A DNA stretch of 64,000 bases from Acidimicrobiia bacterium. GTDB lineage: Bacteria > Actinomycetota > Acidimicrobiia > IMCC26256 > JAENVU01. Positions 39,521-63,810 of this stretch are shown here, piece by piece. Under the pieces are notes generated by a model. The model made no database searches and was not told where the DNA came from. It saw only the letters and a program-made list of their open reading frames with translations. Where the stretch lies: the NCBI GenBank assembly GCA_038252255.1, contig JBBSAM010000002.1, forward strand, positions 87,964 to 151,963, written 5' to 3'. The position numbers and the translations under genes are program-made. The number at the start of each line of letters is the position of its first letter. Position 1 is the stretch's first letter.

Positions 39521-39594
39521 GGGGGTGTAGCTCAGCCCGGTAGAGCGCTACGTTCGCAACGTAGAAGTCGTGGGTTCAAGTCCCATCACCTCCA
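39521..39594 (+). tRNA. tRNA-Ala (anticodon CGC)
   Basis: Folded manually into a 74-nt cloverleaf. Acceptor stem GGGGGTG/CACCTCC includes the G3:U70 alanine identity pair. The anticodon stem is CTACG/CGTAG with loop TTCGCAA, and the T-loop is TTCAAGT. CCA is not encoded. Confidence 0.95.
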
Positions 39595-39612
39595 CTCCGT
39601 AAGTCCTGGTCA
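39553..39612 (+). repeat. Direct repeat DR1 (attL): 3' part of tRNA-Ala plus 18 nt downstream
   Basis: ttcgcaacgtagaagtcgtgggttcaagtcccatcacctccactccgtaagtcctggtca is identical over 60 bp to 63751-63810. Its first 43 bp are identical to 57662-57704. Confidence 0.92.
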
Positions 39613-39652
39613 GCGGCCCGAGGCTGCGCTCCGGTTGCCTGGCTCGGCGCCA

Positions 39653-39673
39653 TTGGCAACCGTTTGGCAACGG
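39653..39673 (+). repeat. Two direct TTGGCAAC repeats (candidate integrase arm-type sites) just upstream of int
   Basis: ttggcaaccgtttggcaacgg. The same doublet recurs at 57539 and 63628, immediately upstream of the other two tRNA-fragment repeats. Confidence 0.7.
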
Positions 39674-39689
39674 ATTACCCTCCCGGGCC

Positions 39690-40835
39690 ATGCGTGGTCA
39701 TCTGCGGAAACGCGGTCCTTCCTGGCAAGTGCTCGTCGACGCCGGACGTGATCCGATCACGGGGAAGCGGCGACAGGTCTCTCGCAACGTGCGTGGGACG
39801 AAGAAGCAGGCTGAGGAAGTTCTCGCTCGGATGCTGGTGGAGGCCGGTGCCGGCGCACACTCCGGGACTTCAAACGCGACGGTCTCCGGGCTGGTCGAGG
39901 CGTGGTTCGAGCTTGCGAGGCCTGACCTCTCTCCCTCGACGGTACAGACAACACGTTGGTTCATCGACCTTTACGTGCGTGACCGCATCGGCATCGTCCC
40001 GCTCCGGCGCCTTTCCGTCGCGAAGCTGGACCGCTACTACGCCGAGCTTCGCCAGGGTGGAGGCGCGAACGGCAAGGCTCTGTCGCCGCGCACGGTGAGG
40101 AGGGTCCACAACATCGTGAGGCGCGCGCTCGAGCAGGGGCTGCGATGGGGTTGGATCGGAACCAACCCCGCTGCGCACGCGTCTCCGCCGAAGCTGCAAC
40201 GGCGGGAGCCGACCCCGCCGACGCCGGCCGACGTGCAGCGGCTGCTCGATGCTGCGGAGGCCGACGATCCGGACTTCGCGATGTTCCTTCGGCTCGCGGC
40301 TGCAACCGGTGCGCGCCGCGGCGAGCTCTGCGGGTTGCGATGGGCGACTCTCGATCTCGACGGGGGAGCGGTGCTGATCGACCGGAGCGTCGTGCGCAGT
40401 GACGACGGGATCGTCGAGAAGGACACGAAGACGCATCAAGCGCGTCGCATCGCTCTCGACGGGTCAACAGTCACGATGCTTCGCCAACACCACGAGCGCG
40501 CCACCATGCGCGCTCGCGAGTGCGGCGTATCGCTCGCTGATGATGCGTACGTCTTTTCCTACGAACCGGGTGGCCGGAAGCCGTGGGCACCGTTGACGGT
40601 CTCGCAGCGGTTCGGCCGGTTGCGCGATCGATTGGATCTGCAGGGTGTACGTCTGCACGACCTTCGCCACTACGTCGCGACTCGACTGATCGCCGGGGGA
40701 GTGTCGATCCGAACCGTGTCCGGTCGACTCGGTCACGCCAGCGCCGCGACCACCCTCGGCGTCTACTCGCATTACGTTGACGCAACGGATCAGGATGCCG
40801 CTGACCTTCTGGGCGCCCTCCTCGATGGTTCGTAG
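39690..40835 (+). CDS. int: Tyrosine-type site-specific integrase
   Basis: 381 aa. N-terminus MRGHLRKRGPSWQVLVDAGRDPITGKRRQVSR. The catalytic region has ATGARRGEL, HDLRHYVATRL and LGHASAATTLGVYSH. Lies adjacent to the tRNA. Confidence 0.93.
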   Translation: MRGHLRKRGPSWQVLVDAGRDPITGKRRQVSRNVRGTKKQAEEVLARMLVEAGAGAHSGTSNATVSGLVEAWFELARPDLSPSTVQTTRWFIDLYVRDRIGIVPLRRLSVAKLDRYYAELRQGGGANGKALSPRTVRRVHNIVRRALEQGLRWGWIGTNPAAHASPPKLQRREPTPPTPADVQRLLDAAEADDPDFAMFLRLAAATGARRGELCGLRWATLDLDGGAVLIDRSVVRSDDGIVEKDTKTHQARRIALDGSTVTMLRQHHERATMRARECGVSLADDAYVFSYEPGGRKPWAPLTVSQRFGRLRDRLDLQGVRLHDLRHYVATRLIAGGVSIRTVSGRLGHASAATTLGVYSHYVDATDQDAADLLGALLDGS

Positions 40836-40895
40836 CGGCATCGGCTCTGGCCCGCCCGCAGGCAGGGTCGGAGGCCAAGCGTCCCTGGATCGCGT

Positions 40896-41108
40896 TTAGA
40901 GGGCGATGTCGCCGCCGCCGACGAGCAGAGTTCTCCCGGTCATGAACAGCGAGAGGTCACTCGCGCCGAGGACCACGACGCGTGCCACATCATCAGCCAC
41001 CCCGATCCGACCTAGCGGAAGCCGCTCGGCATAGCTGTCGAGGAGGTCGCCCGGGCCTGCCTTCCCGAACGCCTCTCGGCCTGCGGCGATACCAGGTGTG
41101 TCGATCAA
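40896..41108 (-). pseudogene. Truncated short-chain dehydrogenase/reductase (C-terminal about 70 aa only)
   Basis: Translation ...LGRIGVADDVARVVVLGASDLSLFMTGRTLLVGGGDIAL is the SDR C-terminus. The Rossmann N-terminal part is absent. Confidence 0.6.
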
Positions 41109-41229
41109 GGTTGGCGCTCATGTGCACTCTTCCTGGCCGAAGGGTGCCTCGCCGGGCTCCTGGGCCATTCGGCCTATCTCCACTTTCTCTACTTGTTCAG
41201 TCGAAATGCTTCATATAGTCTCTCCGGCC

Positions 41230-42312
41230 ATGAGAATCCGCCATGCGCTTCAGATCGTCGTTGTCCTGCTGACCGTCATCGTCGCCACCGCAGCCCTCGC
41301 CGGCTGCGGCAGCTCCGGGAGCTCGAACAGCTCGTCCGGCTTGACGGCTAGTACCAAGGCGTCAACGCAGCCGGTCACGATCCGGCTCGGCTACTTCCCG
41401 AACGTGACCCACGCGCCCGCGTTGGTCGGGATCGAGAGCGGGCTCTTCAAGAAGAACCTCGGCAGCAACGTGACCTTGGAGACCCAGTCGTTCAACGCGG
41501 GTCCCGATGCGATCACCGCCATCTTCTCCGGCGCGTTGGATGCGTCGTTCATCGGGCCCGGCCCGTCGATCAGCGGCTTTCAGAAGTCCGATGGCAATGC
41601 GCTTCGCATCGTCGCGGGCGCAGCGTCGGGCGGTGCGTCTCTGGTCGTGAAGAAGGACATCAACACGCCGTCCGACCTCAAAGGCAAGACCATCTCGACC
41701 CCGCAGCTCGGGAACACCCAAGATGTCGCGCTGCGCGCCTGGTTGAAGGAGAAGGGCCTCTCGGCGGATACGTCGGGCGGCGGCGAGGTGAACGTCCTCC
41801 CGCAAGAGAACGCGCAGACCTTGACGACGTTTGAGTCCGGCGACATCGATGGCGCCTGGGTCCCCGAGCCATGGGCGACGCGTCTGGTCCAGGAGGGTGG
41901 TGGCAAGGTCCTGGTGAACGAGGCCAGCCTTTGGCCGAAGGGCGAGTTCGTCACGACCAACCTGATCGTCGCGACCAGCTTCCTGAACGCGCACCCAGAC
42001 GTCGTCAAGCAGCTCATCGAAGGCGAGATCGCGTCGATCAACCTGATCAAGACCAAGCCGACGCAAGCTCAGAACATGACCGCCACCGCGATCGACAAGG
42101 CGACCGGCAAGCCGATCAAGACGGCGCTCGTCGCTGATTCGTTCAAGAACCTCACCTTCACCGTGAACCCGATTCCGCCTTCCCTGGTGAAAGATGCCAA
42201 GGATGCCGCCTCCCTCGGGCTGATCTCGTCTGCCGACGTGAAGGGGATCTACGACCTGAAGATCCTCAACAACGTTCTCAGGAGCGAAGGCCAAGCTCCG
42301 ATCAAGAGCTAG
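41230..42312 (+). CDS. ABC transporter substrate-binding lipoprotein (NitT/TauT: nitrate/sulfonate/taurine family)
   Basis: ATG at 41230. The signal peptide has a lipobox ALAGCGSSGS, followed by IRLGYFPNVTHAP, typical of SsuA/TauA-like SBPs. Confidence 0.82.
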   Translation: MRIRHALQIVVVLLTVIVATAALAGCGSSGSSNSSSGLTASTKASTQPVTIRLGYFPNVTHAPALVGIESGLFKKNLGSNVTLETQSFNAGPDAITAIFSGALDASFIGPGPSISGFQKSDGNALRIVAGAASGGASLVVKKDINTPSDLKGKTISTPQLGNTQDVALRAWLKEKGLSADTSGGGEVNVLPQENAQTLTTFESGDIDGAWVPEPWATRLVQEGGGKVLVNEASLWPKGEFVTTNLIVATSFLNAHPDVVKQLIEGEIASINLIKTKPTQAQNMTATAIDKATGKPIKTALVADSFKNLTFTVNPIPPSLVKDAKDAASLGLISSADVKGIYDLKILNNVLRSEGQAPIKS

Positions 42313-42357
42313 CCGACCGAACTGAACCGTCACGACGCTCAACGCGGGAGAGAACAC

Positions 42358-43158
42358 ATGACACAGACACAGGCGCTCGAAGCAGCGACCCAAGCACGCC
42401 AAGCGGCCGCCATCTCCCTCGTCAACGTCTCCAAAGTGTTCGGCAACACGGACGACGCGACCCACGCGCTGGACCGAATCTCACTCGACGTCGCCCCAGG
42501 GGAGTTCGTCTGCCTGATCGGCGCGTCGGGCTGTGGCAAGAGCACGCTGCTCAACCTGGTCGCGGGGCTCGACCAACCGACCTCCGGCGTGGTGACGGTT
42601 CGTGGCAAGCGAACCTCCATGATGTTCCAGGAGTCCGCTCTGTTTCCATGGCTGACGGTGCGGGACAACGTAGAGCTCGCCCTGCGGCTCGACAACCTCG
42701 GGCGGCCGGAACGCCGACAGCGCGTGCACGAACTGCTCGAGATGGTGCACCTCGAGGACTTCGGCGACAAGCGGCCGCACGAGCTCTCCGGCGGCATGCG
42801 CCAACGCACCGCGCTCGCCCGTGCCCTCGCGCAACAGGCCGACATCCTTCTCATGGACGAACCGTTCGGTGCTCTCGACGCGATGACCCGAGACCTGCTC
42901 CACGACGAGCTCGAAGCACTCTGGACGCGCACGCGCCTCAGCGTCTTGTTCGTGACGCACAACGTCCGCGAAGCGGTACGGCTGGGAGACCGAGTCGTGC
43001 TGCTCACGAGCCGGCCCGGCCGCGTCGCTGACCAGTACGTGGTCGACACCGCGCGACCGCGCCGCATCGACTCGAGCGACGTCGCGCGGCTTGCGGCTTC
43101 CATCACCGACCGTCTTCGCGAAGAGGTGCGCCGCCATGGCGACGACGCTCGAAGCTGA
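42358..43158 (+). CDS. ABC transporter ATP-binding protein (NitT/TauT family)
   Basis: Walker A GASGCGKST, signature LSGGMRQR, Walker B ILLMDEPFGALD. Confidence 0.9.
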   Translation: MTQTQALEAATQARQAAAISLVNVSKVFGNTDDATHALDRISLDVAPGEFVCLIGASGCGKSTLLNLVAGLDQPTSGVVTVRGKRTSMMFQESALFPWLTVRDNVELALRLDNLGRPERRQRVHELLEMVHLEDFGDKRPHELSGGMRQRTALARALAQQADILLMDEPFGALDAMTRDLLHDELEALWTRTRLSVLFVTHNVREAVRLGDRVVLLTSRPGRVADQYVVDTARPRRIDSSDVARLAASITDRLREEVRRHGDDARS

Positions 43159-43996
43159 CCTCGCCGGTCTCGACGCGCTCGAGATCGCAGTACCGCGCCG
43201 TCGCAGCCGCGCCGCCCGCATCTGGGCCGCGACCTGGCCCAAGATCGGCGCCGTCACACTCGCGCTGATGCTCTGGCAACTCCTGGTCTGGAGCAGTTGG
43301 AAGCCGGAGTACGTGCTGCCCGGCCCGGCGACCGTATTCAAAGCACTCTTCGACAACCTCGGTACCTACATCGCAGCTTCCGCCGTCACGCTGCAACGCG
43401 CCGCGATCGGCTTCACCGTCGCACTGATCGTCGGGACACTGATCGGCGCGCTCGTCGCGCGAAGCCGCATCCTGCGTTCCGCGGTCGGCTCGATGATCAC
43501 CGGCATCATGACGATGCCGTCGATCGCCTGGTTCCCCGCCGCGATCGTGCTCTTCGGTCTCAAGGAGAGCGCAATCCTGTTCGTCATCGTCCTCGGCGCC
43601 GCACCGTCGATTGCGAACGGCTTCATCGCCGGTGTCGACAACACGCCGCCAATCCTCATGCGTGCTGCACACATGCTCGGCGCCCGAGGTTGGAAATCGT
43701 TCCGCTACGTCGTCCTCCCCGCAGCTCTCCCCACCTACGTGTCCGGCCTCAAGCAGGGATGGGCGTTCGCCTGGCGGAGCCTTCTCGCCGGTGAGCTGCT
43801 CGTCCAGATCGCGGGCCAGGAGTCACTCGGACGATCCCTCGACAACTCCCGCCAGTTCGCCGACTACCCGGGGCTCTACGCGACCATGATCGTCATTCTC
43901 GCGATCGGCATCCTGGTCGACTCGCTCATCTTCGGCCAACTCGACCACCGGATTCGGAGGCGCTACGGCCTCGTCGACGCCGCGGCCAACGAATAG
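43136..43996 (+). CDS. ABC transporter permease (NitT/TauT family)
   Basis: The ATG at 43136 overlaps the ATPase gene. The product is multi-TM with an EAA-like loop (..AAHMLGARGWKSFRYVVLPAALP). Confidence 0.85.
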   Translation: MATTLEADLAGLDALEIAVPRRRSRAARIWAATWPKIGAVTLALMLWQLLVWSSWKPEYVLPGPATVFKALFDNLGTYIAASAVTLQRAAIGFTVALIVGTLIGALVARSRILRSAVGSMITGIMTMPSIAWFPAAIVLFGLKESAILFVIVLGAAPSIANGFIAGVDNTPPILMRAAHMLGARGWKSFRYVVLPAALPTYVSGLKQGWAFAWRSLLAGELLVQIAGQESLGRSLDNSRQFADYPGLYATMIVILAIGILVDSLIFGQLDHRIRRRYGLVDAAANE

Positions 43997-44306
43997 GCCG
44001 CTGGGCCCGACCCGATCGTTCGATCCCCGCGACCTCGACGCCTGCTGTCGCAATTGCGAACTCCTCGACCCCGCGCCGCACGAGCCACGCCTGCCCGCGA
44101 GCTGATCGAATCGATACCTGGCACGCTCGGAGCATCGGAGATCCGGAGGGTGGGGACTGGAGTGAACCGCGGGTTGGTGAGCGTTCGAGCCTTCAGACCA
44201 GTTCCGCGCATGTCCCCTCGCGCGGGTCCGCGGCGCGGCGCTGCGCCGTTCGCGCTGTCAATTGCATCTGGGCCCGCCACAGGCGTCCAGCCACGTTTGC
44301 TCTTGT

Positions 44307-47300
44307 TCATCCGAGGCCAACGCCGAGGTCGACTTCGGGTATGGGTTCGCGTGCTTGGGTTGTGAGCGCGCCGAGCTGTCGAGTGTCCATGTGCCAGAGG
44401 GTGGCTTCGTCGCCGGTCGGTTCGGGTCCGAGCGGACGGCGCGGGTCGGTGCTGTTGTGGTCGACGCGGTAGCGCTCGACGAACTCCGCGGCGCGCCGCC
44501 AGTCGGTGGGACGCGTCGGGTCGTCGGGCGGCGGGCCGAGTGCGCGGAGGTATGGCGGTGGCTCTGCGAGGTCGGCGTCGACGAGCTGGGCGATGCGGGC
44601 GTCGACGGTGACCTGGATGGCCGGGAGGCGTCGCAGGTCGTCGCGGTGCTCGGCAACATACGCCTGGTGTTCGTCGTGTCCGTCGCGGGCGCGTTCGAGC
44701 GCGTCGTCGAGGCTCTGGACGCTGAGGGTGTGAACATCGACCTGGTTGGTGAGCACGAGCCGGCGCGTCCGTCGATCGGCGCGGTGGCGCCATCCGTGCT
44801 TACTGAGGGCATCGAGCTCCCGCTGCGTGTGCGCGAGGCGATTGTTGGCCCGGCCGCGTTGGGTGGTGAGTGAATCGATCTCGTAGGACCGATCGCGCGG
44901 GCATCGGCCTGCGATCTCCCGGAGGCGGTCGCGTTCCTGCATGAGCGATCGGATCTCATGGTGGATCGCGTTGCGGTCGATGCCAGCGTCGACCGCGAGG
45001 TGCTGAGCGTGGCTGACCGTGAGCGCTTGAGTGAGCGCGTCGAGAGGTTCGGGCGGCACGGCTTCGGGGGTGTGGGCGTCGGGCCGGGGTTCGCGGCCGA
45101 CGAGGTAGATGCTGTTCTCCGTGCGACCACGTGAGAGCGCGACGTAGCCGGCTTCTTGGTAGAGCAGATCGGAGCCAAGCACGAACGCGCGCTCTGCGGT
45201 CTGGCCTTGGGCCTTGTGAATCGTGGTCGCGTAAGCGTGGAGGACGTGGCCCGCGTCGAGGTACCGGTCGGGCAGCGTGACCGCGGCCCCGGTGTCGGTG
45301 CGGACGGTCATCGCCCGGTCGTCGGGGTCGACACTGGTGATGAGAGCGCAGGTGCCGTTGCGGACCTTGAGTCGCCGGTCGTTGCGAAGGGTCATGATCC
45401 GATCGCCGGATTGATAAGGGCGGTGCTCGACGGTGAGGGTCGGGCCGGTCAGCCTTCCTGCGGCTTGGAGGTGGGATCGGGCGCGGGCGTTGAGGTCATC
45501 GACGTCGGACCACCGGGTGGCGAGCATGAGCACCTGCTCGCCGGCGAGGGTGGCGGCCCACCAGTCCGCGCTCATCGCGTCGCGCGCGCCGGGCGCGGTC
45601 TCGTGGGTGTGGATACGGCCGTGGGCGTCGTAGGCGGTGACGGCATCGTCGACGTTGCCATCTCGCAGTTGTGCGAGTGCGTGACGTTCCCATGCTTCGT
45701 GTTGACGTCGGTTCTGGGTGAGACGAATCGGTGGGATGCGTCGGCCGAGGCCGCGGAGGAGCCCGCCAGCGTCGATCTCGGGGAGCTGGCGGGGATCGCC
45801 GACGAGAACGACCTTCGTGTGTGCAGCCGCGGCGTGGTCGAGGAGCCGAGCGAGCTGTCGGGTGCCGGCCATGCCTGCTTCGTCGACAACGAGGACCGTG
45901 CCCGCTCGGAGTCCTCCATGTTCGGGATGGTCGAGGTCACTGAGAAGGCCGGCGATGGTGTGGCTGGGGATGCCCGCGGTTGCCTCGAGCTCGGCGGCGG
46001 CGCGCGCCGCCAGCGCCGTGCCGACCACGAGGTGCCCGGAGCGTTGCCAGGCGTCGCGCGCCGCGTCGAGGCTGAAGGTCTTGCCGGTCCCCGCCGCGGC
46101 GATCACCACGTCCACCGCGCGTCCTGATGTGGTGAGCGCGACGACCATCTCGACTTGCTCCCCCGAGAGACTGGGTCGGGCGGCCAGCGCGGCAAGCACG
46201 CAGTCCTCGTCCGCGACACCCAGGACCTCGTCCGTGCGGGCGACGGAGCGGCGCACCAGGCGGGCTTCGAGCGCGAGCAGCTCGTCGGTCGAGAACCGCT
46301 GCCCGGTCGAGGGCGTGTCGATCGGCCGTCCCGTAGCGCGCCGCCGCATTGTTCCAACGGGGCCGTGGTCTGCTGGCGCGAGGGGCACGACATGCGGATC
46401 GGCGAGGACCTGATCGGCGAGCGTCTCGACCAAGCTGACGTCGGCGCCTTCGGGGAGTTGGTCGCACCAGGCTCGCAACACGGCGCGCCGATCGAACGTG
46501 CTGGCCTGGCGGGTCAGCCCGTCGGGCCCGAGCAGCCAGCTCCTGATCTTGTCGACCCGTTCGGCGGTCAGCGCGGTGGGACAGGCCTGTCCCAGCACGC
46601 GCTCGAGCTGGTCAGGTTCCCATCCGAGCTCGGCGGCTTGTTCGGTCCACCGGGTGTGGAGCCGGGACGGTTCGACGTCGTAGTTCTTGGCCTGGCGGGT
46701 ATCGAGCACCGCGTACTGCGCAGCGCGAGCCGAGCTGACACCCCGGGCAGCCATCTCGGCCTCGATCTCGCGCCGTCGGGTCGAGAAACGCTCCAGCACC
46801 GTGGCAGGGATCCCTTCGACGTCGGCGATCCCGTTGACAACCGGACCCCACGCAACGCCGAGCCGGGCGGTGAGCTCGGCTCGAAGCTGTGCCTCGTAGA
46901 GGTACCCGGCGGTCTTCGCGTGGAGGTAGAGGTGCCGGGCGTCGAGCGCGCCCCAGAGACCATCCGCGCTACGCGTCGTGTTCGCAACGAGGACGTGGGT
47001 GTGCAGGTGGGGGTCACCGGCCCGGCTCGTGCGGTGTCGGAACCCGGCCGCGACGAACCCGTCACCGCGCAGCGCCACGATCCCGTTCGTGCCCCGCCGC
47101 GACCAACACGCCTCGCCTTCCAGGTACCCGAGTGCGGTCCTGACGCTCGCGTCGTGCGCAGCTCGTACCTCTCTGCTGGTCTCCCATTCACTGAGCCCCC
47201 AGAGCACCGACACCGATTTCGGTGCGCAGAACGTGAGGTCGAAGCCCGGTACGCGGCGATGCCGGGAGCGCGCGAGCGGCTCGCCGGTGGACGGGTCGTG

Positions 47301-47486: not shown

Positions 47487-47635
47487 CGCATCTCGCTCGC
47501 ATCGACCGCGCCGCGCATTTTGAATGCAAGTGCGTGCGGGTATTCGTGGAGGTTGGGAAGGGCGAACGTGAGGGCGTCGTCGAAGCGACGCGCGAGGCGA
47601 TCGCGGACGCGGGGCGGGGGGTAGTGGTGAGTCAT
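47480..47635 (-). CDS. Small ORF (51 aa) wedged between xis and the relaxase gene (tentative)
   Basis: Its ATG overlaps the xis stop (ATGA). Its stop overlaps the first codons of the relaxase gene. There is no recognisable motif, and support comes only from the coupled arrangement. Confidence 0.35.
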   Translation of the reverse strand: MTHHYPPPRVRDRLARRFDDALTFALPNLHEYPHALAFKMRGAVDASEMRC

Positions 47636-47844
47636 GAGGTGGCGCGCGCGAGGAGTGCTTCGATCGCGTGCTTCGGGATCACGACTCGACGGCCGAGCCG
47701 CAAGTGCGGGAGCTCGCCGCGCGCCACGAGCTCGTAGGCGTGTGCACGCGAGATCCCCAAGAGCCTTCCGGCCTCCTCGACCGTCCACACGAGCCGCTCC
47801 TCGTCGGGCCTTCTGGCTTCTGCTTCGTTCATCTCGACCTCCAT
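47632..47844 (-). CDS. xis: Excisionase-type (MerR-like HTH_17) DNA-binding protein
   Basis: 70 aa with LVWTVEEAGRLLGISRAHAYELVARGELPHLRLGRRVVIPKHAIEALL, the classic excisionase-family HTH. Confidence 0.8.
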   Translation of the reverse strand: MEVEMNEAEARRPDEERLVWTVEEAGRLLGISRAHAYELVARGELPHLRLGRRVVIPKHAIEALLARATS

Positions 47845-49942: not shown

Positions 49943-50045
49943 ACTGAGGGCGCACCCGGGTTCTGGCAAGTCCAGCCGCATTTACCAATGAGGCGAACCA
50001 CTGCGCGCCTGATCGAGCAAACTGCCTGAAGCAGACAACGGGGGA

Positions 50046-55792: not shown

Positions 55793-55840
55793 ATCGGCGG
55801 AATTAGGGCCGGGCATGGCCGAGGGGCCACCGCCCACCTC

Positions 55841-55861
55841 ATTGTGCGATAATCGCACAAT
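55841..55861. promoter_or_regulatory. Perfect 10-1-10 palindrome (candidate Xre operator) overlapping a -10-like GATAAT and the start codon of the Xre-ImmA gene
   Basis: ATTGTGCGAT-a-ATCGCACAAT. The A of the ATG is at 55860, inside the right arm. GATAAT sits at 55848-55853. Confidence 0.7.
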
Positions 55862-56978
55862 GACCTCTGACAACGTGACCACGCAGGAAGACCTTGGCCG
55901 TCGCATCGCCACGGGACGTGAAACTGCAGGGCTCACGCAGCTCGAGCTCGCTGACGCGGTCGGGATCGACCGGACGGCGGTAGCGAAGGTCGAGCGCGGG
56001 AGCCGAAGGGTGTCAGCGACCGAGTTGGTTCGGATAGCAGCTGCGCTCGACCGGCCGGTTGACTGGTTCGTTTCAGAACCGCCACCGGCTGTCATCAGCA
56101 GGCGGGAGGACGTGTCGGTCAACGGGCGCTCGAAGCGTTTGGACGCAACAGTCGATCGTGTCGGGCGTGACGTTGCGTTCTTGCTCTTGGAGTCCGTGCT
56201 CCCGGCGCGCGAGCGCGAGAGCTTCGCGACTCCAGAAAGTTTCGAAGCGGCAGCGCAACTGGCTGAACGTGCGCGGGGGTTGCTCTCCTCGGGAGACGGT
56301 CCTCTGTTCGATCTGCAGCGCGCGTGCGAGCAGCTCGGTCTCCTAGCGTTTTCACTGTCCTTGGGTGACGGAGGCGGGGACGCGGCATACGTCGACGTGG
56401 ACGGATGGGGTGTTGCCGTCGTCAATGGCGATACCGATCCTGGGCGCCGTCGATTCAACCTCGCGCACGAGTTGGGCCACCATCTTGTTGGCGATGCATA
56501 CGCGGCCGAGGTGACGATCACCGCTGGCGACGAGACGGAAAAGCTCCTCAATGCGTTCGCTGCGTACCTTCTGATGCCGCGATCTGGTGTCACGGCGACC
56601 TGGAACGAGTTCAGCGACCGTGATCGGCGGCTCGCAGCAATCGCTGTGGCAACGCGGTACCGGGTGAGCTGGAGCGCCGCGCTGGCTCACCTCCGCAATC
56701 TTGAGCTCATCGACAGTGCAGAGATCGAAGAGCTCACGCCTGCAACACCGCGTGGCGGGGATCTCGTCGAACTGGGCGAATGGTGGGTTCCCGAACTCGA
56801 TCCGCCGAGCGTCCCGCCTGACTACGGCCGCCGGGTCGTCACGGCCTATAGGGCGTCCAAGTTGACCGCGGCCCGGGCAGTCGAGCTCCTCTGGGGCACG
56901 GTCACCGAAGCCGACTTGCCCGAGGTCGAGGGCATTCCGGTCGACGCCCTCCGCCGTGAGTTCGATCCTCTGCAGTGA
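55860..56978 (+). CDS. Xre-type HTH fused to an ImmA/IrrE-family zinc metallopeptidase (COG2856-like)
   Basis: 372 aa. The N-terminal HTH is LGRRIATGRETAGLTQLELADAVGIDRTAVAKVERGSRRVSATELVRIAAAL. The central FNLAHELGHHLVGD (HExxH) is followed by AFAAYLLMP. Confidence 0.85.
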   Translation: MTSDNVTTQEDLGRRIATGRETAGLTQLELADAVGIDRTAVAKVERGSRRVSATELVRIAAALDRPVDWFVSEPPPAVISRREDVSVNGRSKRLDATVDRVGRDVAFLLLESVLPARERESFATPESFEAAAQLAERARGLLSSGDGPLFDLQRACEQLGLLAFSLSLGDGGGDAAYVDVDGWGVAVVNGDTDPGRRRFNLAHELGHHLVGDAYAAEVTITAGDETEKLLNAFAAYLLMPRSGVTATWNEFSDRDRRLAAIAVATRYRVSWSAALAHLRNLELIDSAEIEELTPATPRGGDLVELGEWWVPELDPPSVPPDYGRRVVTAYRASKLTAARAVELLWGTVTEADLPEVEGIPVDALRREFDPLQ

Positions 56979-57508
56979 GGACGTTGGTGTTCGACAACAC
57001 CGTGCTCAGTCATTTTGCGCGGGCTGGCCAGCTTGATGTGCTGCGTGAGATTTCTGACGGCGCCCGGCGCGTCATGCCGGCCGAGGTCGCAGTCGAACTC
57101 GTCGCAGGGATACGTGAGCATCCAGCGCTAGCAAAGGTCCTCGATCGGGAATGGCTCGAGACCGTCGAACTGGTTGACGTCAACGAGATCGTGGCGTTTG
57201 CTCGGTACAAGGCCGAGTTCGGTGGCGGTATCGACCGGAACAACGGAGAGGCAGCGGTGCTCGCCTGGACCAGCGTCCACGGCGGGACCGCGATCGTGGA
57301 CGACGCGGTTGCTGCTCGTGCTGCGAAGCGTGACGGTGTCGATGTCCACGGCACGTTGTGGCTCGTCGCGAATGGGTTTCGTGATGGCAAACTCAAGCGT
57401 GCCGCTGCGGAGGAGGTCGTCGACCTTCTCGCTGCGAGCGACATGCGACTCCCGGTCGATGGTCGGGGATTCTTCGCCTGGGCTTTCCGCGAAGGCTTGC
57501 TCCCCTGA
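56975..57508 (+). CDS. PIN-like nuclease-fold protein (DUF3368/DUF4411-like), candidate toxin/effector
   Basis: The GTG at 56975 overlaps the ImmA stop (GTGA). Translation MRTLVFDNTVLSHFARAGQLDVL...NNGEAAVLAWTSVHGGTAIVDDAVAARAA has the acidic residues and layout of PIN-like domains. The family assignment is by eye. Confidence 0.65.
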   Translation: MRTLVFDNTVLSHFARAGQLDVLREISDGARRVMPAEVAVELVAGIREHPALAKVLDREWLETVELVDVNEIVAFARYKAEFGGGIDRNNGEAAVLAWTSVHGGTAIVDDAVAARAAKRDGVDVHGTLWLVANGFRDGKLKRAAAEEVVDLLAASDMRLPVDGRGFFAWAFREGLLP

Positions 57509-57538
57509 GCCCGTTCACCTGCGAGAGCGCGCTCAGCT

Positions 57539-57559
57539 TTGGCAACCGATTGGCAACGG
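57539..57559 (+). repeat. TTGGCAAC doublet (arm-type site candidate) in the right arm of island 1
   Basis: ttggcaaccgattggcaacgg lies about 100 bp upstream of DR2. A second conserved block gcagcgacctgacctgcacag is at 57603-57623 and is also present at 63692-63712. Confidence 0.7.
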
Positions 57560-57661
57560 AACCGGTTGGGCGGGGTGGGATGCACGGATCCAGCGGACTG
57601 CCGCAGCGACCTGACCTGCACAGATAGACGCCGTGGCATCACGACGACGAGACCGATGACC

Positions 57662-57704
57662 TTCGCAACGTAGAAGTCGTGGGTTCAAGTCCCATCACCT
57701 CCAC
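57662..57704 (+). repeat. Direct repeat DR2 (attR of island 1 / attL of island 2): displaced 3' fragment of tRNA-Ala
   Basis: 43 bp identical to tRNA positions 39553-39595 (ttcgcaacgtag...cacctccac). The sequence then diverges (caaatc) before a second short match tcctggtca. Confidence 0.9.
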
Positions 57705-58044
57705 CAAATCTCCTGGTCACAGCGTTGAAACGGGTCGGGCCCGGTCGAGATAGGTGGGCGTTGGCAACCGAGCTCGCGATTTGAGCAGCTTCGTTCCGAC
57801 TGGCGGCGGCAGAACTCCTCGCCGGCGCGCGTCGTCGGTCTTCGGTGCCACGGTCACCGGCTCGAGGTCCGCAGGGCGCACGCCCGAGCCCGAGCGGATG
57901 GCCCCGAGGGCGTCTTTGACTCGCGCTGCACCCGGCAGGGAAGACCGGCGCGAGGTGGCCTCCGAGGCACCGACGACTGGTGCCGAGTAGCCCGGCGGGT
58001 CAATCTCGACTTGTGAGCGGGAGCCGAGGTGCGATCCTGGGGTC

Positions 58045-58617
58045 ATGGCGCGCTACTTCACGGCCGATCTCCACCTCGGCCATCGCAACATCATCGACTA
58101 CAGCGGCCGACCCTTCCGTGACGCCGAGCAGATGAACGGCGCGCTCGTCGAGCGCTGGAACGCCACGGTGACGCCGGAGGACGAGGTGATCGTGCTTGGC
58201 GACTTCGCGATGGGTCGCATCGACGAGACCCTTCCGATCGCGGGTGTGCTCAACGGCCGGAAGGTGCTGCTGGCCGGGAACCATGACCGCTGTTGGCTCG
58301 GGCACAAGAAGGGCGTCGATGTCGCGACCGACCGCTACCTCGCCGCGGGATTCGACGAGATCTGGCAGGGCACGATCGAGATCGCCGTCGATGGTGTGCG
58401 GGTCCTCGCTTGTCACTTCCCGTACCGCGGCGACAGCCAAGACCGCGATCGGTACGTCTCCCACCGCCCCGCCGACGCGGGCGCCTGGCTCCTGCACGGT
58501 CACGTCCATGAGCGTTGGAAGGTGCGGGAACGGATGATCAACGTCGGCGTCGATGTCTGGGACTTCGCCCCGGTAGCGGAACGCGAGCTCGCGGATCTCA
58601 TCACGCAACGACCCTGA
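58045..58617 (+). CDS. Calcineurin-like metallophosphoesterase
   Basis: 190 aa with FTADLHLGH, VLGDF, LAGNHD and LLHGHVH (MPP motifs). Confidence 0.8.
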   Translation: MARYFTADLHLGHRNIIDYSGRPFRDAEQMNGALVERWNATVTPEDEVIVLGDFAMGRIDETLPIAGVLNGRKVLLAGNHDRCWLGHKKGVDVATDRYLAAGFDEIWQGTIEIAVDGVRVLACHFPYRGDSQDRDRYVSHRPADAGAWLLHGHVHERWKVRERMINVGVDVWDFAPVAERELADLITQRP

Positions 58618-58719
58618 GGCAGCGTACCGAGAACTGATGCAGTGCCCGGCGACATCCTTCACGCCTGTCGCACCGGCCCCATTGCCAACGTCGTGCTCGG
58701 CGCGGCGTACCGTGCATCG

Positions 58720-59052
58720 ATGGCTCGTCTTGTCGGCGGCTGGCAGATCGTCGAGATGGATCTATGGGATCGCGATGCGATCGACTTGCTCGGCCCTGCC
58801 TTTATCGAGTTCAGGGCTGACGGCACTGGCAGCTTTCGTTTCATCGCGGTGGAGGGCTACCTCGACTTCAGGCACGACGAACGCGTAGCCGGAGCGAGGG
58901 TCGAGTTCACCTGGGAAGGTGACGACGAAGGGAGTCCCGTGTCCGGGCGAGGTTCGGCAGAGTTGCAGCCCGACGGGTCACTCTGTGGCCGCATCTTCTT
59001 CCACCTCGGTGACGACTCCGGCTTCCGAGCCGTCGCAGACGCCAGCTGCTGA
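58720..59052 (+). CDS. Hypothetical protein
   Basis: Inner ATG at 58720 (MARLVGGWQIVEMDLWD...). No family was recognised. Its last about 35 nt and the next about 25 nt are repeated at 62607-62665. Confidence 0.45.
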   Translation: MARLVGGWQIVEMDLWDRDAIDLLGPAFIEFRADGTGSFRFIAVEGYLDFRHDERVAGARVEFTWEGDDEGSPVSGRGSAELQPDGSLCGRIFFHLGDDSGFRAVADASC

Positions 59053-59143
59053 CGCACCTCCGGCGTCGACGGCCAAGCTGATCCGCTCGGTGCTTCCGCG
59101 ACAAGGCACGTGTGCGACCCTCACGGCGGGCCGGCCGCTTCAG

Positions 59144-59461
59144 CTACGCGTCGGGGAACTCCGACGCCACCACGGACCGCAGCGCGGCGACGAAGTCCGG
59201 GAGCAGCTCCGTAGCGGTCGTGTACAGGATCTCAAGGTCGATCGACCAGTAGCTGTGCACAATCCGGTTGCGGAGCCGGATCGGGTTCTGCCACGCGACA
59301 TTGGGGTGACGGAGTCGGATCTCTTCGGAGACCTGGCCCGCGGCCTCGCCGAGCACGGTGAAGTTCCACAGGAGAGCATCGCGGCGTGTCTCGTCCTGCT
59401 CGAGTTGGCCGACGGTCTGTCCGCCGACCAAGGAGATCGCCCGTTCGGCGACGTCGATCAT
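59144..59461 (-). CDS. hepT: HepT-like (DUF86) RNase toxin of a type VII TA pair
   Basis: Contains the RNRIVHSY (Rx4HxY) motif. The start is the ATG at 59461 or the TTG at 59470, just after the MntA stop. Confidence 0.8.
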   Translation of the reverse strand: MIDVAERAISLVGGQTVGQLEQDETRRDALLWNFTVLGEAAGQVSEEIRLRHPNVAWQNPIRLRNRIVHSYWSIDLEILYTTATELLPDFVAALRSVVASEFPDA

Positions 59462-59480
59462 CTCGGCCAAGAGGAGACGA

Positions 59481-59804
59481 TCACGCTGAATACAGGATGC
59501 GCGCGTCGTGGAGGATCTGCTCGCGCAGCAGTTCGTGCAGGTGCCGCTTCGACACCAGATCCACCGGCCGCCCGTACAGTGCGGAGAGCTCCTCCGCGAG
59601 CTCCTCGATCCTCCAGCCGAGATGGGCGTCGCGATTCGGTACGTAGAGCAGGTCGATGTCACTCCCGGGCTCGAGCTCACCGCGTGCCGCCGAACCGAAC
59701 ACCGCGAGCTCTGCGAGGCCGTAGCGACGGCAGATCTCCGCGAGACGATCAGCGTCGACCGACGAGCTCTCCACGATTCTCGGGGCTGGTGCATCGCTGG
59801 TCAC
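59481..59804 (-). CDS. mntA: MntA-like minimal nucleotidyltransferase antitoxin
   Basis: 107 aa, GTG start. Contains LAVFGSAARGELEPGSDIDLL (GSxxRG...DxD). Confidence 0.85.
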   Translation of the reverse strand: MTSDAPAPRIVESSSVDADRLAEICRRYGLAELAVFGSAARGELEPGSDIDLLYVPNRDAHLGWRIEELAEELSALYGRPVDLVSKRHLHELLREQILHDARILYSA

Positions 59805-59831
59805 GGCATCATTCTCGCAGGTGGGGTGTGC

Positions 59832-60521
59832 TCACGCTGCGACTGCGATCGTCTTGGTGACGATCGCCCGCCGAAGTCGGTCGGCGGCCTCCTCGCGGTC
59901 CTCGCCGCCGAGATCGCGGAGGTCCCACCACTGTTGCACCGGATCCGCGAGTGGGACCCCGTCGATCGTCGCGGGCCAGGGCGCGCAGGAGAAGAGAAGC
60001 GTGCGGTCGCTCGTCGTACGAAGCACGATGCTCGCGTCGGCGCAGCCCTCTGCGGCCACCATCCCCGCAGCTCCTGGGTCGAGGATGCCATCCGCGTACA
60101 CAACCGTCAGGCTCGGGTGTCTCCAGGGCACCACGAGATCGGGACCAAGGTCTGCCGAGACCGCGATGGTGAGACCTTGTCGCCGTGCCTCCTTCGCAAT
60201 GCGACGTGCCTGGTCGATGAGCTCGCGGGTGCTGTACCAGAACGTCTCCGGTCCGAGGAGATGAGGCCGAGCCTTCTTGGCGTACAGATCGAGCAGGCGC
60301 GCCGGCTTGCCGCGATATCCGTTGACCGACACGGTTACCGCGTTCGCCGCCGCGAGCTGCTTCAGGACCTGCGACGCCCGTGGCTGGGTCACCCCGATCG
60401 CGCCCGCGATCGCGACCTGGGTCAAGGGACCATCCGCAGCGATCAGGAGCCGCACGATCGCAGCGGTTCCTGATCCCCACTTGCGCGTGTGGGGTGGGGC
60501 CGAGGACGGGGCAGTCGCCAT
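59832..60521 (-). CDS. Winged-HTH protein with an uncharacterised C-terminal domain (AbiEi-like architecture, tentative)
   Basis: 229 aa. The N-terminus IVRLLIAADGPLTQVAIAGAIGVTQPRASQVLKQLAAANAV looks like a MarR/ArsR-type wHTH. The gene ends 27 nt upstream of mntA on the same strand. Confidence 0.55.
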   Translation of the reverse strand: MATAPSSAPPHTRKWGSGTAAIVRLLIAADGPLTQVAIAGAIGVTQPRASQVLKQLAAANAVTVSVNGYRGKPARLLDLYAKKARPHLLGPETFWYSTRELIDQARRIAKEARRQGLTIAVSADLGPDLVVPWRHPSLTVVYADGILDPGAAGMVAAEGCADASIVLRTTSDRTLLFSCAPWPATIDGVPLADPVQQWWDLRDLGGEDREEAADRLRRAIVTKTIAVAA

Positions 60522-60730
60522 GCACTCAGGGTATAATCCTTCCTTTCAGAATGCAAGGAACACTTATAGGAAGACTTATGTGTATCCCGGCAATGCCGAC
60601 GACCCTCACGCGTCACGAGAAGGCTTGCGCGGAGGTCTCTGGGCCGGGTCGGACTCCTACGACGGACATCGCGTTCTAGAAGCTTCTAACTGTTAACCTT
60701 TCTAAACTCGCGGAGTTGAGAAGGGATCCG

Positions 60731-61840
60731 ATGTCGAGTGAGATCGTCATGGTCGAGTGGGAAGGCCGTCCGGTCGACGCGTTCGTTCCAGCTCCCCTCT
60801 CCGATGTCGGTGAGCTCGGCGCGGCCGCTCGACTCGATGCGGCTCACGCCGACGGGGCCCTGAGCGCGACGGCGGCTCGGCACGGGACGCGCCTTGAAGT
60901 CGCCGCTCGATTGCTCTTGCGCGCCGAAGGGGTGGCCTCCAGCAGCATCGAGGCGATCAACGCTCCCACGGACGCGGTCGCTGTAGCCAACGTGGACCTG
61001 TCCGTCGCCGGGCCCGCGGCAGAGGTCGCGGACAACCTGCGCGCCCTTGACGCGGTCTTGTCTCATGAGGGCCCGCTCGGACGCGAAGACTTGTGGCAGT
61101 GGCACACCATCCTGATGGCGTCGGCAGACCTCGACGCCCATCTCAAGGGGGCCTGGCGCGACCGCCTCGGCTGGGTCGGTGGACCCACCCCACGTCGGGC
61201 CGCGTACGTCGCCACGCCCGACGACCGCATCGATGCGCTGATGGTCGACCTCGTCGACTACGCGAACAAGCCGTCGCACGATCCGGTGACGGCCGCCGGC
61301 CTCCTCCATGCCCAGTTCGAGACGATCCACCCGTTCGCTGACGGCAACGGGCGCATCGGCCGGTTGCTGATCGGCTGGACACTCCACCGCCACCTTGCGT
61401 TGGCGGTCCCGCCGCCGGTGTCGGTCGCGTTCCTCCGCGACGTTGGCGGCTACTTGTCGGGACTTACGCTCTACCGCACCGTCGGCCCGGACGATTGGAT
61501 CCGCTGGTTTGCCAACACCGTCGAACACGCAGCAATGTCCGCCGCCGAGACTCTCGCCGCCGTCAGCGAGCTTGTCGCCTCATGGCCGGCTCGACTCGAG
61601 AATCTCCGGTCCGACGCTGCTGCTCGTCGCCTGGTCGATCAGGTGCTGACACACCCGGCCCTCGATGTGGACACGGCGGTCAGCCTCCTCGGCGTGAGCC
61701 TTCCGACCGCCCGAGCAGCACTCGAAGCTCTTGCCGAGCGCGGGGTATTGCGACCGGCCGAGCTGCCGATGACAGGCGAACCGGGGCGACCTCGCAGCTG
61801 GTGGGTCGCCGGCGAGCTCCTCGACCTTCTCGCTCGCTGA
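60731..61840 (+). CDS. Fic/DOC-family protein (AMPylase-type) with a C-terminal wHTH-like region
   Basis: Fic motif HPFADGNGRIGR. The N-terminal Fic_N-like segment is EGVASSSIEAI. The ATG at 60731 follows gaaggga. An alternative TTG lies at 60716. Confidence 0.88.
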   Translation: MSSEIVMVEWEGRPVDAFVPAPLSDVGELGAAARLDAAHADGALSATAARHGTRLEVAARLLLRAEGVASSSIEAINAPTDAVAVANVDLSVAGPAAEVADNLRALDAVLSHEGPLGREDLWQWHTILMASADLDAHLKGAWRDRLGWVGGPTPRRAAYVATPDDRIDALMVDLVDYANKPSHDPVTAAGLLHAQFETIHPFADGNGRIGRLLIGWTLHRHLALAVPPPVSVAFLRDVGGYLSGLTLYRTVGPDDWIRWFANTVEHAAMSAAETLAAVSELVASWPARLENLRSDAAARRLVDQVLTHPALDVDTAVSLLGVSLPTARAALEALAERGVLRPAELPMTGEPGRPRSWWVAGELLDLLAR

Positions 61841-61856
61841 TGTTCGCCGCGGCGGT

Positions 61857-61873
61857 TTGGCAACCGATTGCCA
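61857..61873 (+). repeat. Orphan TTGGCAAC-cga-TTGCCAg site inside island 2
   Basis: ttggcaaccgattgcca has the same spacing as the arm doublets, but its second half is inverted or mutated. It lies between fic and the pRiA4b-ORF3 gene. Confidence 0.5.
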
Positions 61874-61938
61874 GGGGACTGGCTGCAGCGCCACGTCGTG
61901 AAGTGGCACCGGCACCCGGATCTGCCGGTCCGTAGGGT

Positions 61939-62502
61939 GTGTGGATGCCGACCCCGCCGAGTCAGGTCGTCTTCCAGCTCCGCGTGACGCTCCGAGACGT
62001 CGACCCGCCCCCGTGGCGGCGTCTGCTGGTTCCCGGGTCGGTGAAGTTGGCGAGATTGCACGAGTTCCTCCAGGCCGCGATGGGCTGGACGAACTCTCAT
62101 CTGCACTGCTTCGAGATCGGCGGCGCACGCTACGGGATGCAGTTCGACGAACACCCGGAAGATGAGCTCAACGAAAGGGACGTGTCAGTCCTCCGAGCGA
62201 TCGGTGAGCACGAATCGTTCCTGTACGAGTACGACTTCGGAGACTCGTGGGAACACGACGCGGTCGTCGAACGTGTCGTACGCGCGCACCGCGGGCTACA
62301 GCGGGCGGTGTGTCTCGATGGCGCGAGCACGTGCCCGCCCGAGGACTGTGGTGGATCGTACGGGTACCGACATCTGCTCGAGGCTCTCGCCGATGCGTCA
62401 CATCCGGATCACCTGGATCTGACCGACTGGGTCGGCGGTGTGTTCGACCCGTCGTCGTTCGACTTGGTCGCGGTGAACGTCGCGCTCCAAGCTGTGCGCT
62501 GA
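61939..62502 (+). CDS. Plasmid pRiA4b ORF-3-like family protein
   Basis: 187 aa with FQLRVTLRDVDPPPWRRLLVPGSVKLARLHEFLQAAMGWTNSHLHCF, YEYDFGDSWEH and CPPEDCGG. Confidence 0.8.
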   Translation: MWMPTPPSQVVFQLRVTLRDVDPPPWRRLLVPGSVKLARLHEFLQAAMGWTNSHLHCFEIGGARYGMQFDEHPEDELNERDVSVLRAIGEHESFLYEYDFGDSWEHDAVVERVVRAHRGLQRAVCLDGASTCPPEDCGGSYGYRHLLEALADASHPDHLDLTDWVGGVFDPSSFDLVAVNVALQAVR

Positions 62503-62562
62503 CAGTCTTACGGACCGAAGTCGTGATCGATGCTCACCATCTCGACGTTCCCATCCCCGGTG

Positions 62563-62665
62563 AGCTTCTTCGTGCGCCACGCCTTCATCACCGGCGGGCA
62601 GTACCGCCGGCTTCCGAGCGGTCGCAGACACCAGCCGCTGATACACAACCGGCGTCGACGGCAAG
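62563..62665 (+). pseudogene. Mosaic relic: 3' fragment of a Mod-like methyltransferase gene joined to a copy of the 3' end of ORF 58720-59052
   Basis: 62563-62603 matches 55583-55623 of the mod gene, with the first 20 nt identical (SFFVRHA.F.TGGQ). 62607-62665 matches 59018-59077 at about 52 of 60 positions. Confidence 0.6.
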
Positions 62666-62976
62666 GCCGCACTGCTCGTTGAGTCAGAACGTGGCCTGTT
62701 CGGTGAAGCGAAAAGCGTCCGAGATTCGTATGAGCCCGAGCGAGATCCTCATGGAGTGGCAACGCCAGCACGAGGTCCTCAGCGCCGAGATGGCTAAAGA
62801 GATTCCTTGCTCATTCGGAGTTGGAGCGTCTCTCCGGGCCGTGGATCGCGTCCATCGAACGCGACCTTCGGAGCTAGCAAGGGTGGCCTGACCAGGGCCG
62901 CTGCACACAAGACGTCTCGGCGTCACCAGCGCGCGCTCATGAGGCGGACATGTGACGCCGGGAAATCGCAACCCCG

Positions 62977-63369
62977 CTACGGGACGAGAGTTGTCACACC
63001 AATCGTTGGCGCGTTCGCCAGTTTGACGTCCACGGTGATCAACGTCGCGTGGAGATGCCTCGCCATGACAACGTACAACGCGTCACCGATCGTCACGTTG
63101 TGCCGGAGCGCCCAGGCCTCGGACGCGAGAGTCCGGACCGACGCGCGACGGGCCGGGAGCGTGAGCAGTCGGTCGACGGTGGCCATCGCTTGTACGGGCG
63201 TGATGACTCCGCGGAGTTCGAGGCTGCGAAGCGTTGCTTCGACCTCAAGGTAGAAGTGTTCCGGCACCCAGATCGTGTGCCCGTCGATCGCCCTTCCGAC
63301 GCGACGACCAACCGCGCTGTGGAGCAGCAGCTCGACACCTGCGGAGGCGTCGAGCACGACGGGCGTCAC
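62977..63369 (-). CDS. vapC: PIN-domain toxin VapC
   Basis: 130 aa, GTG start. Translation VTPVVLDASAGVELLL...DALYVVMARHLHATLITVDVKLA has the PIN acidic residues. Confidence 0.85.
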   Translation of the reverse strand: MTPVVLDASAGVELLLHSAVGRRVGRAIDGHTIWVPEHFYLEVEATLRSLELRGVITPVQAMATVDRLLTLPARRASVRTLASEAWALRHNVTIGDALYVVMARHLHATLITVDVKLANAPTIGVTTLVP

Positions 63370-63551
63370 CGTTCGCCGTGCTCCCGGAGCTCGCGAACCA
63401 GATCCGCGACCACGCCCACGCCGAGCTCAATGGGTTCGAGTTCGTCGAGACTTCCGAGCCAGACCTCGACCGCGACAGGCGAAGTATCGGTCCCGTCTTC
63501 GATCGGAACGATCACGGGGTCGATCTCGAAGTCCTCGGGGTGCCTGGCCAT
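63366..63551 (-). CDS. Small antitoxin-like protein upstream of vapC
   Basis: 61 aa and acidic. Its stop overlaps the vapC start (GTGA). The family was not recognised. Confidence 0.55.
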   Translation of the reverse strand: MARHPEDFEIDPVIVPIEDGTDTSPVAVEVWLGSLDELEPIELGVGVVADLVRELREHGER

Positions 63552-63627
63552 TCGGAAATGCTACCGCCGACCTACGGCCACGGCGCCCGGAATGCCGTCG
63601 AGCGTCGCGTCGAGGCACCGACGCGGA

Positions 63628-63648
63628 TTGGCAACCGATTGGCAACGG
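63628..63648 (+). repeat. TTGGCAAC doublet (arm-type site candidate) in the right arm of island 2
   Basis: ttggcaaccgattggcaacgg is identical to 57539-57559 and lies about 100 bp upstream of DR3. Confidence 0.7.
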
Positions 63649-63750
63649 AACCGGTCGCACGGGGTGGCAAGTACAGACTCAGCCGATTCGCGCAGCGACC
63701 TGACCTGCACAGTTGGACTCGGTCGAACCGCGCCGATGAACCCAATGACC

Positions 63751-63810
63751 TTCGCAACGTAGAAGTCGTGGGTTCAAGTCCCATCACCTCCACTCCGTAA
63801 GTCCTGGTCA
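63751..63810 (+). repeat. Direct repeat DR3 (distal attR): displaced tRNA-Ala 3' fragment plus downstream 18 nt
   Basis: 60 bp identical to 39553-39612. Confidence 0.92.

Follow-up and report, generated by a model that had tools for sequence, protein, structure and literature searches.

The tRNA-Ala(CGC) locus and its repeats

A 64-kb stretch of DNA from an Acidimicrobiia bacterium (contig JBBSAM010000002.1 of assembly GCA_038252255.1; hereafter the window, to which all coordinates refer) was analyzed at a tRNA-Ala(CGC) gene, the 3' half of which recurs twice further downstream. The three copies of this direct repeat were designated DR1, DR2 and DR3 in order from the tRNA. They delimit two islands, E1 (39596-57661, ~18.1 kb), which adjoins the tRNA, and E2 (57705-63750, ~6.0 kb), which is located distal to E1. 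In our judgment, these 24 kb are likely to represent a tandem of two related integrative elements, located in the 3' end of the tRNA-Ala(CGC) gene on an Acidimicrobiia chromosome. The features of the locus are compiled in Table 1.

The repeat is a 43-mer (TTCGCAACGTAGAAGTCGTGGGTTCAAGTCCCATCACCTCCAC), which a repeat search of the window placed at 39553-39595, 57662-57704 and 63751-63793, in each case on the + strand and with 0 mismatches. None of 100 shuffled sequences contained a match, and no further copy was present in the window when up to 13 substitutions were allowed. ARAGORN and Rfam both called a single tRNA-Ala(CGC) (Rfam tRNA score 69 bits), and the repeat spans the region from the first base of its anticodon loop to its 3' end. 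The exact identity of DR1 and DR2 comprises these 43 bp and no more, while that of DR1 and DR3 extends to 60 bp (39553-39612 and 63751-63810), i.e. to 17 nt past the tRNA end determined by ARAGORN. DR2 and DR3 are identical for 49 bp, and the 6 additional bp (ATGACC) are found only left of the repeat, which is the expectation for two attachment (att) sites of the attR type. An earlier sequence-only reading had reported copies at 39553, 57662 and 63751, the outer two matching for 60 bp and the middle one diverging after 43 bp; all of this was reproduced, except that its count of 18 nt beyond the tRNA is one base too high. A dispersed repeat family, which the same reading had named as an alternative, was rejected, as the window has three copies only and each of them is accompanied by att arms. 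A tmRNA candidate at 57571-57706, which ends at DR2, was rejected as well; its Rfam score was 17.5 bits at a cut-off of 47 bits, and the hit reflects the resemblance of this 3' end to that of tRNA-Ala.

Housekeeping genes occupy the first 39.5 kb of the window, among them those for GroEL, TldD/PmbA, molybdenum-cofactor biosynthesis and a PAS-GGDEF-EAL protein. Immediately before the tRNA is a gene for a PI-PLC-like protein, which is preceded by molybdenum-cofactor genes. Relatives of the PI-PLC-like gene were found in uncultured Acidimicrobiia/Acidimicrobiales genomes only, the best match having 90% amino acid identity (metagenome-assembled genome (MAG) MFD05442.bin.2.104). Both islands differ from this upstream DNA in composition: The GC content falls from 0.706 upstream to 0.660 in E1 and 0.661 in E2, and the GC content at third codon positions (GC3) is 0.912 ± 0.021 for 24 upstream genes, 0.796 for the mean of the E1 genes and 0.75-0.85 for individual E2 genes, with a mean of about 0.75-0.79 for E2.

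Attachment-site arms and related integrases

The motif TTGGCAACSG was observed eight times in the window at an expectation of 0.12, and seven of the eight copies occupy a fixed geometry: +58/+69 after DR1, +57 after DR2, and -123/-112 before both DR2 and DR3. Tandem TTGGCAAC repeats are located at fixed distances from all three core copies. The 123 bp left of DR2 and the 123 bp left of DR3 are 79% identical and have the tandem TTGGCAACCGATTGGCAACGG at -123/-112 in common. On the other side, the sequence after DR2 aligns with the right arms of E1 and of the related element L026 over the CCTGGTCA motif and the first repeat; the similarity is lost where the second repeat and int would come. According to these arm alignments, DR2 and DR3 are attR-type sites and DR1 and DR2 attL-type sites, and the P' arm of E2 was probably cut by the deletion which removed the integrase. 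The tandem TTGGCAAC repeats are probably arm-type integrase-binding sites on both sides of attP, as predicted from their sequence and spacing.

Full-length homologs of the E1 integrase have identities of 96%, 76% and lower. In L026, the integrase of which is 76% identical, the tRNA-Ala(CGC) is followed by the same tandem repeat at +57, matching the E1 P' arm in position and sequence, and then by int, TrwC and HTH_17 genes, with no ABC transporter. The int and relaxase genes of L026 end 2 bp apart (1893-1895), whereas the window has a 3.5-kb ABC transporter operon between them (40836-44306). Thus, the transporter cargo appears to have been inserted at the convergent int/trwC junction. L027 and L057, with integrases of 61% identity, each hold a single element in tRNA-Ala(CGC) between two core copies; their tandem TGTCAAC repeats at +54 to +82 and at -125/-112 have the geometry seen in the window with a different repeat. 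The repeat sequence co-varies with the integrase clade at constant geometry, as arm-type integrase-binding sites would be expected to do. Integrases of still lower identity (≤ 59%) adjoin other tRNAs, namely Glu, Lys and Val. A scan of metagenomes and viruses with the integrase returned distant relatives only (≤ 55% identity), and those at 46-49% with an adjacent tRNA were located at tRNA-Glu or tRNA-Lys, not at tRNA-Ala.

The 17 nt following DR3 are similar to the P' arms of the elements. In L057, the CCTGGTCA motif is also present after the right-hand repeat that bounds its single element, and in L006 the tRNA is followed by a similar sequence. From these similarities, the 17 nt may belong to the native flank, extend the att homology or be what is left of a third element. 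A short motif, CC(T/A)GGTCA, is located 8-17 nt past the tRNA end at 39604-39612, 57712-57720 and 63802-63810, and it also occurs in L026, L027 and L057. No variation in it was seen among the attL flanks and the two outer (attR) flanks examined, and it may represent an additional protein-binding site or conserved native flank.

Gene content of E1 and E2

Table 1. Features of the tRNA-Ala(CGC) locus, ordered by position in the window.
Feature	Position	Strand	Evidence and remarks
tRNA-Ala(CGC), integration target	39521-39595	+	ARAGORN, Rfam; 3' part 39553-39595 is DR1, the core of E1 attL
E1 P' arm	39596-39689	+	CCTGGTCA motif; tandem repeat TTGGCAACCGtTTGGCAACGG at 39653-39673, +58/+69 from tRNA end
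E1 tyrosine integrase (381 aa)	39690-40835	+	Pfam Phage_integrase (PF00589) 2.2e-23, 83 bits; N-terminal arm-binding domain Arm-DNA-bind_4
SsuA-family (sulfonate/taurine-type) ABC transporter: binding protein, ATPase, permease	41098-43996	+	Pfam; NCBIfam
MobF/TrwC relaxase-helicase (1059 aa)	44307-47486	-	Pfam TrwC 1.7e-83, AAA_30; NCBIfam MobF 258 bits (cut-off 100)
Excisionase-type HTH_17 protein (70 aa)	47632-47844	-	Pfam HTH_17 6.8e-14; TIGR01764 46.9 bits (cut-off 28.8)
GmrSD-like (DUF262) type IV restriction protein	48164-49942	+	Pfam GmrSD_N 7.8e-20; PADLOC PDC-M55C (best, 1.2e-18), HEC-05
BPTD_3080-family endonuclease	50046-53093	+	NCBIfam 1197 bits (cut-off 800)
Type III-like methyltransferase	52976-55792 (open reading frame (ORF); true start probably near 53.1 kb)	+	PADLOC MTase_III 1.9e-259; Pfam
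Helix-turn-helix (HTH) + IrrE/M78 protein, RmrA-like	55458-56978 (ORF; true start probably near 55.8 kb)	+	Pfam; PADLOC RmrA, PDC-S70; frame plot (for this and the next gene)
PIN-like DUF3368 protein	56975-57508	+	Pfam; PADLOC
E1 P arm	57539-57661	+	Tandem repeat TTGGCAACCGATTGGCAACGG at 57539-57559, -123/-112 from DR2
DR2, hybrid att site: E1 attR + E2 attL	57662-57704	+	Repeat search, exact identities
E2 truncated P' arm	57705-57770	+	CCTGGTCA motif; single TTGGCAACCG at 57761 (+57)
Metallophosphoesterase-like protein	58045-58617	+	Weak, sub-threshold Pfam match only
orf136	58642-59052	+
HepT	about 59144-59490	-	Pfam
MntA	59481-59804	-	Pfam
HTH protein	59832-60521	-	Pfam
Fic protein (SoFic-like)	60716-61840	+	PADLOC SoFic 3.5e-55
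PRiA4_ORF3 protein	61939-62502	+	Pfam
PIN toxin	62977-63369	-	Pfam
PIN partner (61 aa)	63366-63551	-
E2 P arm	63628-63750	+	Tandem repeat at 63628-63648, -123/-112 from DR3
DR3, attR of E2 and of the whole array	63751-63810	+	Repeat search, exact identities; 43-bp core plus 17 nt as in the DR1 flank

The integrase gene of E1 starts 95 bp past the tRNA. Its reading frame is intact, and the catalytic R...HxxR...H...Y is present in the translation. The excisionase-type gene is located immediately upstream of the relaxase gene on a common strand, and int, xis and MobF are all full length and above the curated cut-offs. For the relaxase, the best plasmid matches were MobF proteins of Corynebacterium with 33-34% identity. 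The SsuA assignment of the transporter scored 169.7 bits for NCBIfam SsuA_fam (cut-off 163.5). The endonuclease and the methyltransferase form a restriction-modification pair (50046-55792). All ORF-sized stretches of E1 and E2 were assigned using Pfam, and no genes for a type IV secretion system, a mating pore, a coupling protein or FtsK/TraB were present among them. Since int, xis and a MobF relaxase are combined with the absence of mating-pore genes, E1 has the gene set of an integrative mobilizable element (IME). The sequence supports its description as a putatively intact IME, which carries defense genes and a sulfonate-type ABC transporter as cargo. Identity with an actinomycete integrative and conjugative element (AICE) was rejected; no E1 or E2 protein has an FtsK-like TraB or a replication initiator domain. 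A 25-bp near-perfect palindrome at 55839-55863 follows the methylase gene and precedes the likely true start of the RmrA-like gene; it could act as operator or terminator.

Prophages or phage satellites, one or two of them, would also place an integrase of the 'phage integrase' family at a tRNA 3' end, a classic prophage site. This origin is scarcely credible: A Pfam search of the E1 and E2 proteins found no genes for capsids, tails, terminases, portals or lysis, E1 encodes a MobF relaxase, and in the viral collection there was a single weak integrase match (32%) and no match to the arm repeat.

In E2, neither an integrase nor an excisionase, relaxase or transfer gene was found with Pfam and tblastn, and tblastn with the E1 integrase detected no homolog or remnant within the island. 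Without mobility genes, E2 cannot move on its own. Cis-mobilizable elements (CIMEs) are recognized by flanking att sites related to those of an IME and by the lack of integration and transfer genes, and E2 has both properties. To judge from its att sites, E2 looks like a decayed, CIME-like relative of E1, which has kept both cores and a full P arm together with a truncated P' arm. The genes left in it are of the toxin-antitoxin, Fic and PIN kinds. The sequence-only reading had seen two islands here. Both are indeed bounded by att copies; recombination and transfer genes are confined to E1, and E2 is a non-autonomous remnant.

Exact-protein look-ups of the flanking PI-PLC-like protein, the integrase, the excisionase and the PRiA4 protein gave no record. 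That of the 61-aa PIN partner led to a 2.4-kb Logan contig (L028) from SRR19962010, which is 100% identical to 61414-63774; it ends inside DR3 and therefore says nothing on the junctions. Some shorter similarities were noted within the islands. The 62.6-kb region of E2 (62562-62681) resembles two gene ends, that of orf136 (59018-59092; 81% over 75 bp) and that of the E1 methylase (55582-55621; 87.5% over 40 bp); these repeats are probably gene fragments or recombination scars. A degenerate tandem arm repeat, TTGGCAACCGATTGCCAGGGG, is present at 61857-61878 in the Fic-PRiA4 intergenic region, away from any core copy. A further element may have left it as a scar, in which case E2 would be composite in its own right.

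Related host genomes, proposed order of events and known systems

In nine Acidimicrobiia relatives, the genes upstream are retained together with a tRNA-Ala(CGC) of identical or nearly identical sequence. Downstream of the tRNA, these nine share essentially nothing with the window or with one another, and the E1 genes are absent from all nine loci. Ancestral, syntenic DNA between the repeats was not seen in them, in line with the island interpretation of the sequence-only reading. In the comparison with unoccupied loci which that reading had proposed, the nine relatives have the tRNA without E1, and none of them joins the tRNA to the downstream flank of the window.

Pieces of E2 do occur at the same tRNA in two relatives. 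In the distant relative L005 (9891-11997), the metallophosphoesterase and Fic modules are located 2.3 kb past the tRNA with 90-92% nucleotide identity, and the 2.1 kb separating them in the window (orf136, HepT/MntA and the HTH protein) are missing, which indicates that E2 is a mosaic. In L007, the PIN module and the P arm are present with 91% identity; the matching stretch (13578-13999) directly precedes a degenerate core copy at 14000 and corresponds to the right end of E2. The flanking core DNA of L005 and L007 has only 75-79% identity to the window, and the higher identity of the modules argues for a recent horizontal spread of E2 pieces.

These data also bear on the proposal that E1 alone is mobile, E2 being ordinary variable chromosome and DR3 a chance or ancient relic of a tRNA fragment. 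E2 has no mobility gene, and the region past the tRNA is variable in all relatives, both of which would suit this proposal. Nevertheless, it is strongly disfavored and in our estimate very improbable. DR3 is an exact 43-bp (60-bp) copy and is preceded by a 123-bp arm of the element type, with the tandem repeat at exactly the distance seen at DR2. DR2 is followed by a fragment of a P'-type arm with the repeat at +57. GC and GC3 of E2 are island-like, and its modules are 90-92% identical in genomes with a core identity of 75-79%.

An indication of older layers comes from L007 (11358-15994), where an intact tRNA-Ala(CGC) is accompanied by degenerate copies of the 3' half at 14000 (4 mismatches) and 15952 (6 mismatches). 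The number of mismatches rises with the distance from the tRNA, which fits newcomers entering at the tRNA and older insertions being pushed outward. The locus looks like a layered series of old insertions at one site.

The claim of the sequence-only reading that tandem islands occupy one tRNA gene is supported by the integrase next to the tRNA, the shared att arms, the like architecture of single elements at this tRNA in relatives, the low GC and GC3 values and the absence from related genomes. For the array of two integrative elements, the following course is proposed. E2 or its ancestor would have integrated first, and a deletion would have removed its integrase, presumably together with excisionase and relaxase. 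E1 would then have entered the reconstituted tRNA gene, displacing E2 outward. The E1 integrase probably recombines the 43-bp core from the anticodon loop onward, so that integration would restore the tRNA. It is probably positioned by the tandem TTGGCAAC arm repeats flanking attP, and excision is probably directed by the HTH_17 excisionase. The excised circle would probably be nicked by the MobF relaxase for transfer via the mating apparatus of another element. If active today, integrase and excisionase of E1 could excise E1 alone (DR1 x DR2) or E1 and E2 together (DR1 x DR3), both of which appear feasible since the arms are complete in either pair. E2 by itself (DR2 x DR3) seems less likely to be excised because of its truncated P' arm. 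Excision of the whole array, which the sequence-only reading had deduced from the identity of DR1 and DR3, is plausible, but for a different reason: The 43-bp core is common to all copies, and the complete P' arm of DR1 and P arm of DR3 would matter rather than the 17 nt.

The successive integrations assumed by the same reading are compatible with the data. Nevertheless, the sequence also fits a single acquisition of an assembled composite, and nothing in it separates the two courses. The E1-E2 composite would have formed in another host, excised via the outer sites and integrated here as one 24-kb unit. In favor of this course, the 43-bp core is perfect in all three copies despite the loss of mobility genes from E2, DR1 and DR3 agree over 60 bp, the arms at the two outer sites are complete, and a transfer of tandems of a CIME and an integrative and conjugative element (ICE) as a unit has been reported (PMC5704250). 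We regard this one-step origin as unlikely, though not negligible, given that L005 and L007 have E2 modules at this tRNA but no E1 gene and that the P arms of E1 and E2 are just 79% identical.

Several observations weigh against a tandem array built up in two steps, or against parts of it. The three cores are perfect in spite of the heavily decayed E2, which also fits the one-step acquisition. No convincing inverted repeats were found between xis and the next gene which might mark an origin of transfer (oriT), and no helper conjugation system is visible within the 64-kb window. A BLAST search of 63794-64000 (207 bp) against all fetched loci gave no match, i.e. no empty site with the window's own downstream flank. 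The window includes 190 bp only of this flank beyond the 60-bp repeat, and in the closest relative, L008, the contig ends at the tRNA. Finally, as the 17 nt after DR3 resemble P' arms, the flank may not be pristine chromosome, and the array may continue past the window.

Such a course is described in a published model (Guedon et al. 2017, PMC5704250, section 2.3), in which an element integrates, decays to a CIME and is joined by a newly integrating IME. The closest parallels are ICESt1/ICESt3 and their CIMEs in Streptococcus thermophilus, where a single target gene likewise has three att copies at its 3' end, an intact element carrying int and xis is located beside a related one which lacks recombination and transfer genes but kept its att sites, and composite excision via the outer sites is possible. 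In contrast, the present array resides at tRNA-Ala(CGC) of an uncultured Acidimicrobiia bacterium, its integrase and relaxase families are unrelated, the inner arm of the decayed element is truncated, and excision and transfer are predictions here. An actinobacterial precedent for modular elements in tandem is provided by the Streptomyces toxicogenic regions TR1/TR2 and PAISt, with IME and ICE at aviX1 or bacA (PMC10711302). These are much larger, are inserted in protein-coding genes, and have a full ICE as the autonomous partner, whereas the autonomous partner here has a relaxase only and is therefore an IME. SGI1, for which tandem arrays are known (PMC5704250), and NBU1 are functional analogs, combining int, xis and a relaxase without mating-pore genes with site-specific integration. 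E1 differs from them in its large MobF/TrwC relaxase-helicase, which is closest to MobF of Corynebacterium plasmids. AICEs such as pSAM2 and SLP1 belong to the same phylum, integrate into tRNA 3' ends via a tyrosine integrase and have an excisionase. They transfer double-stranded DNA by an FtsK-like TraB and carry a replication gene; unlike them, E1 and E2 have neither of these genes and a relaxase instead.

The mechanism has been described for streptococcal and Streptomyces elements, so that no new principle emerges and the case is ordinary, though clear. As an example of tandem accretion, it is clean and fully resolved, and it comes from an actinobacterial class that is uncultured and little studied. 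As a resource, it offers exact att sites, candidate arm-type integrase sites and an int-xis-MobF backbone. Furthermore, it illustrates how defense and toxin-antitoxin genes gather beside a mobile element, with which they could travel. Only tentatively, and with more doubt than confidence, we suggest that tRNA-Ala(CGC) is a layered integration hotspot in this clade of Acidimicrobiia: minimal int-xis-MobF elements would enter at the tRNA, older relatives would be displaced and decay to defense or toxin-antitoxin cassettes, and these would be carried along when an intact element excises via the outer att sites. If so, defense genes would be captured and spread by cis-mobilization in a class without a characterized conjugation system, and the relaxase-only backbone would point to a helper or transfer route yet to be discovered in Acidimicrobiia.

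The contigs of three related MAGs (L001, L004 and L008) end at or within tRNA-Ala(CGC), as expected of a variable site bounded by repeats. Together with the Logan contig ending inside DR3, the assembly breaks at this site seem systematic. The array described here also accounts for the breaks at this tRNA in metagenome assemblies of the clade.

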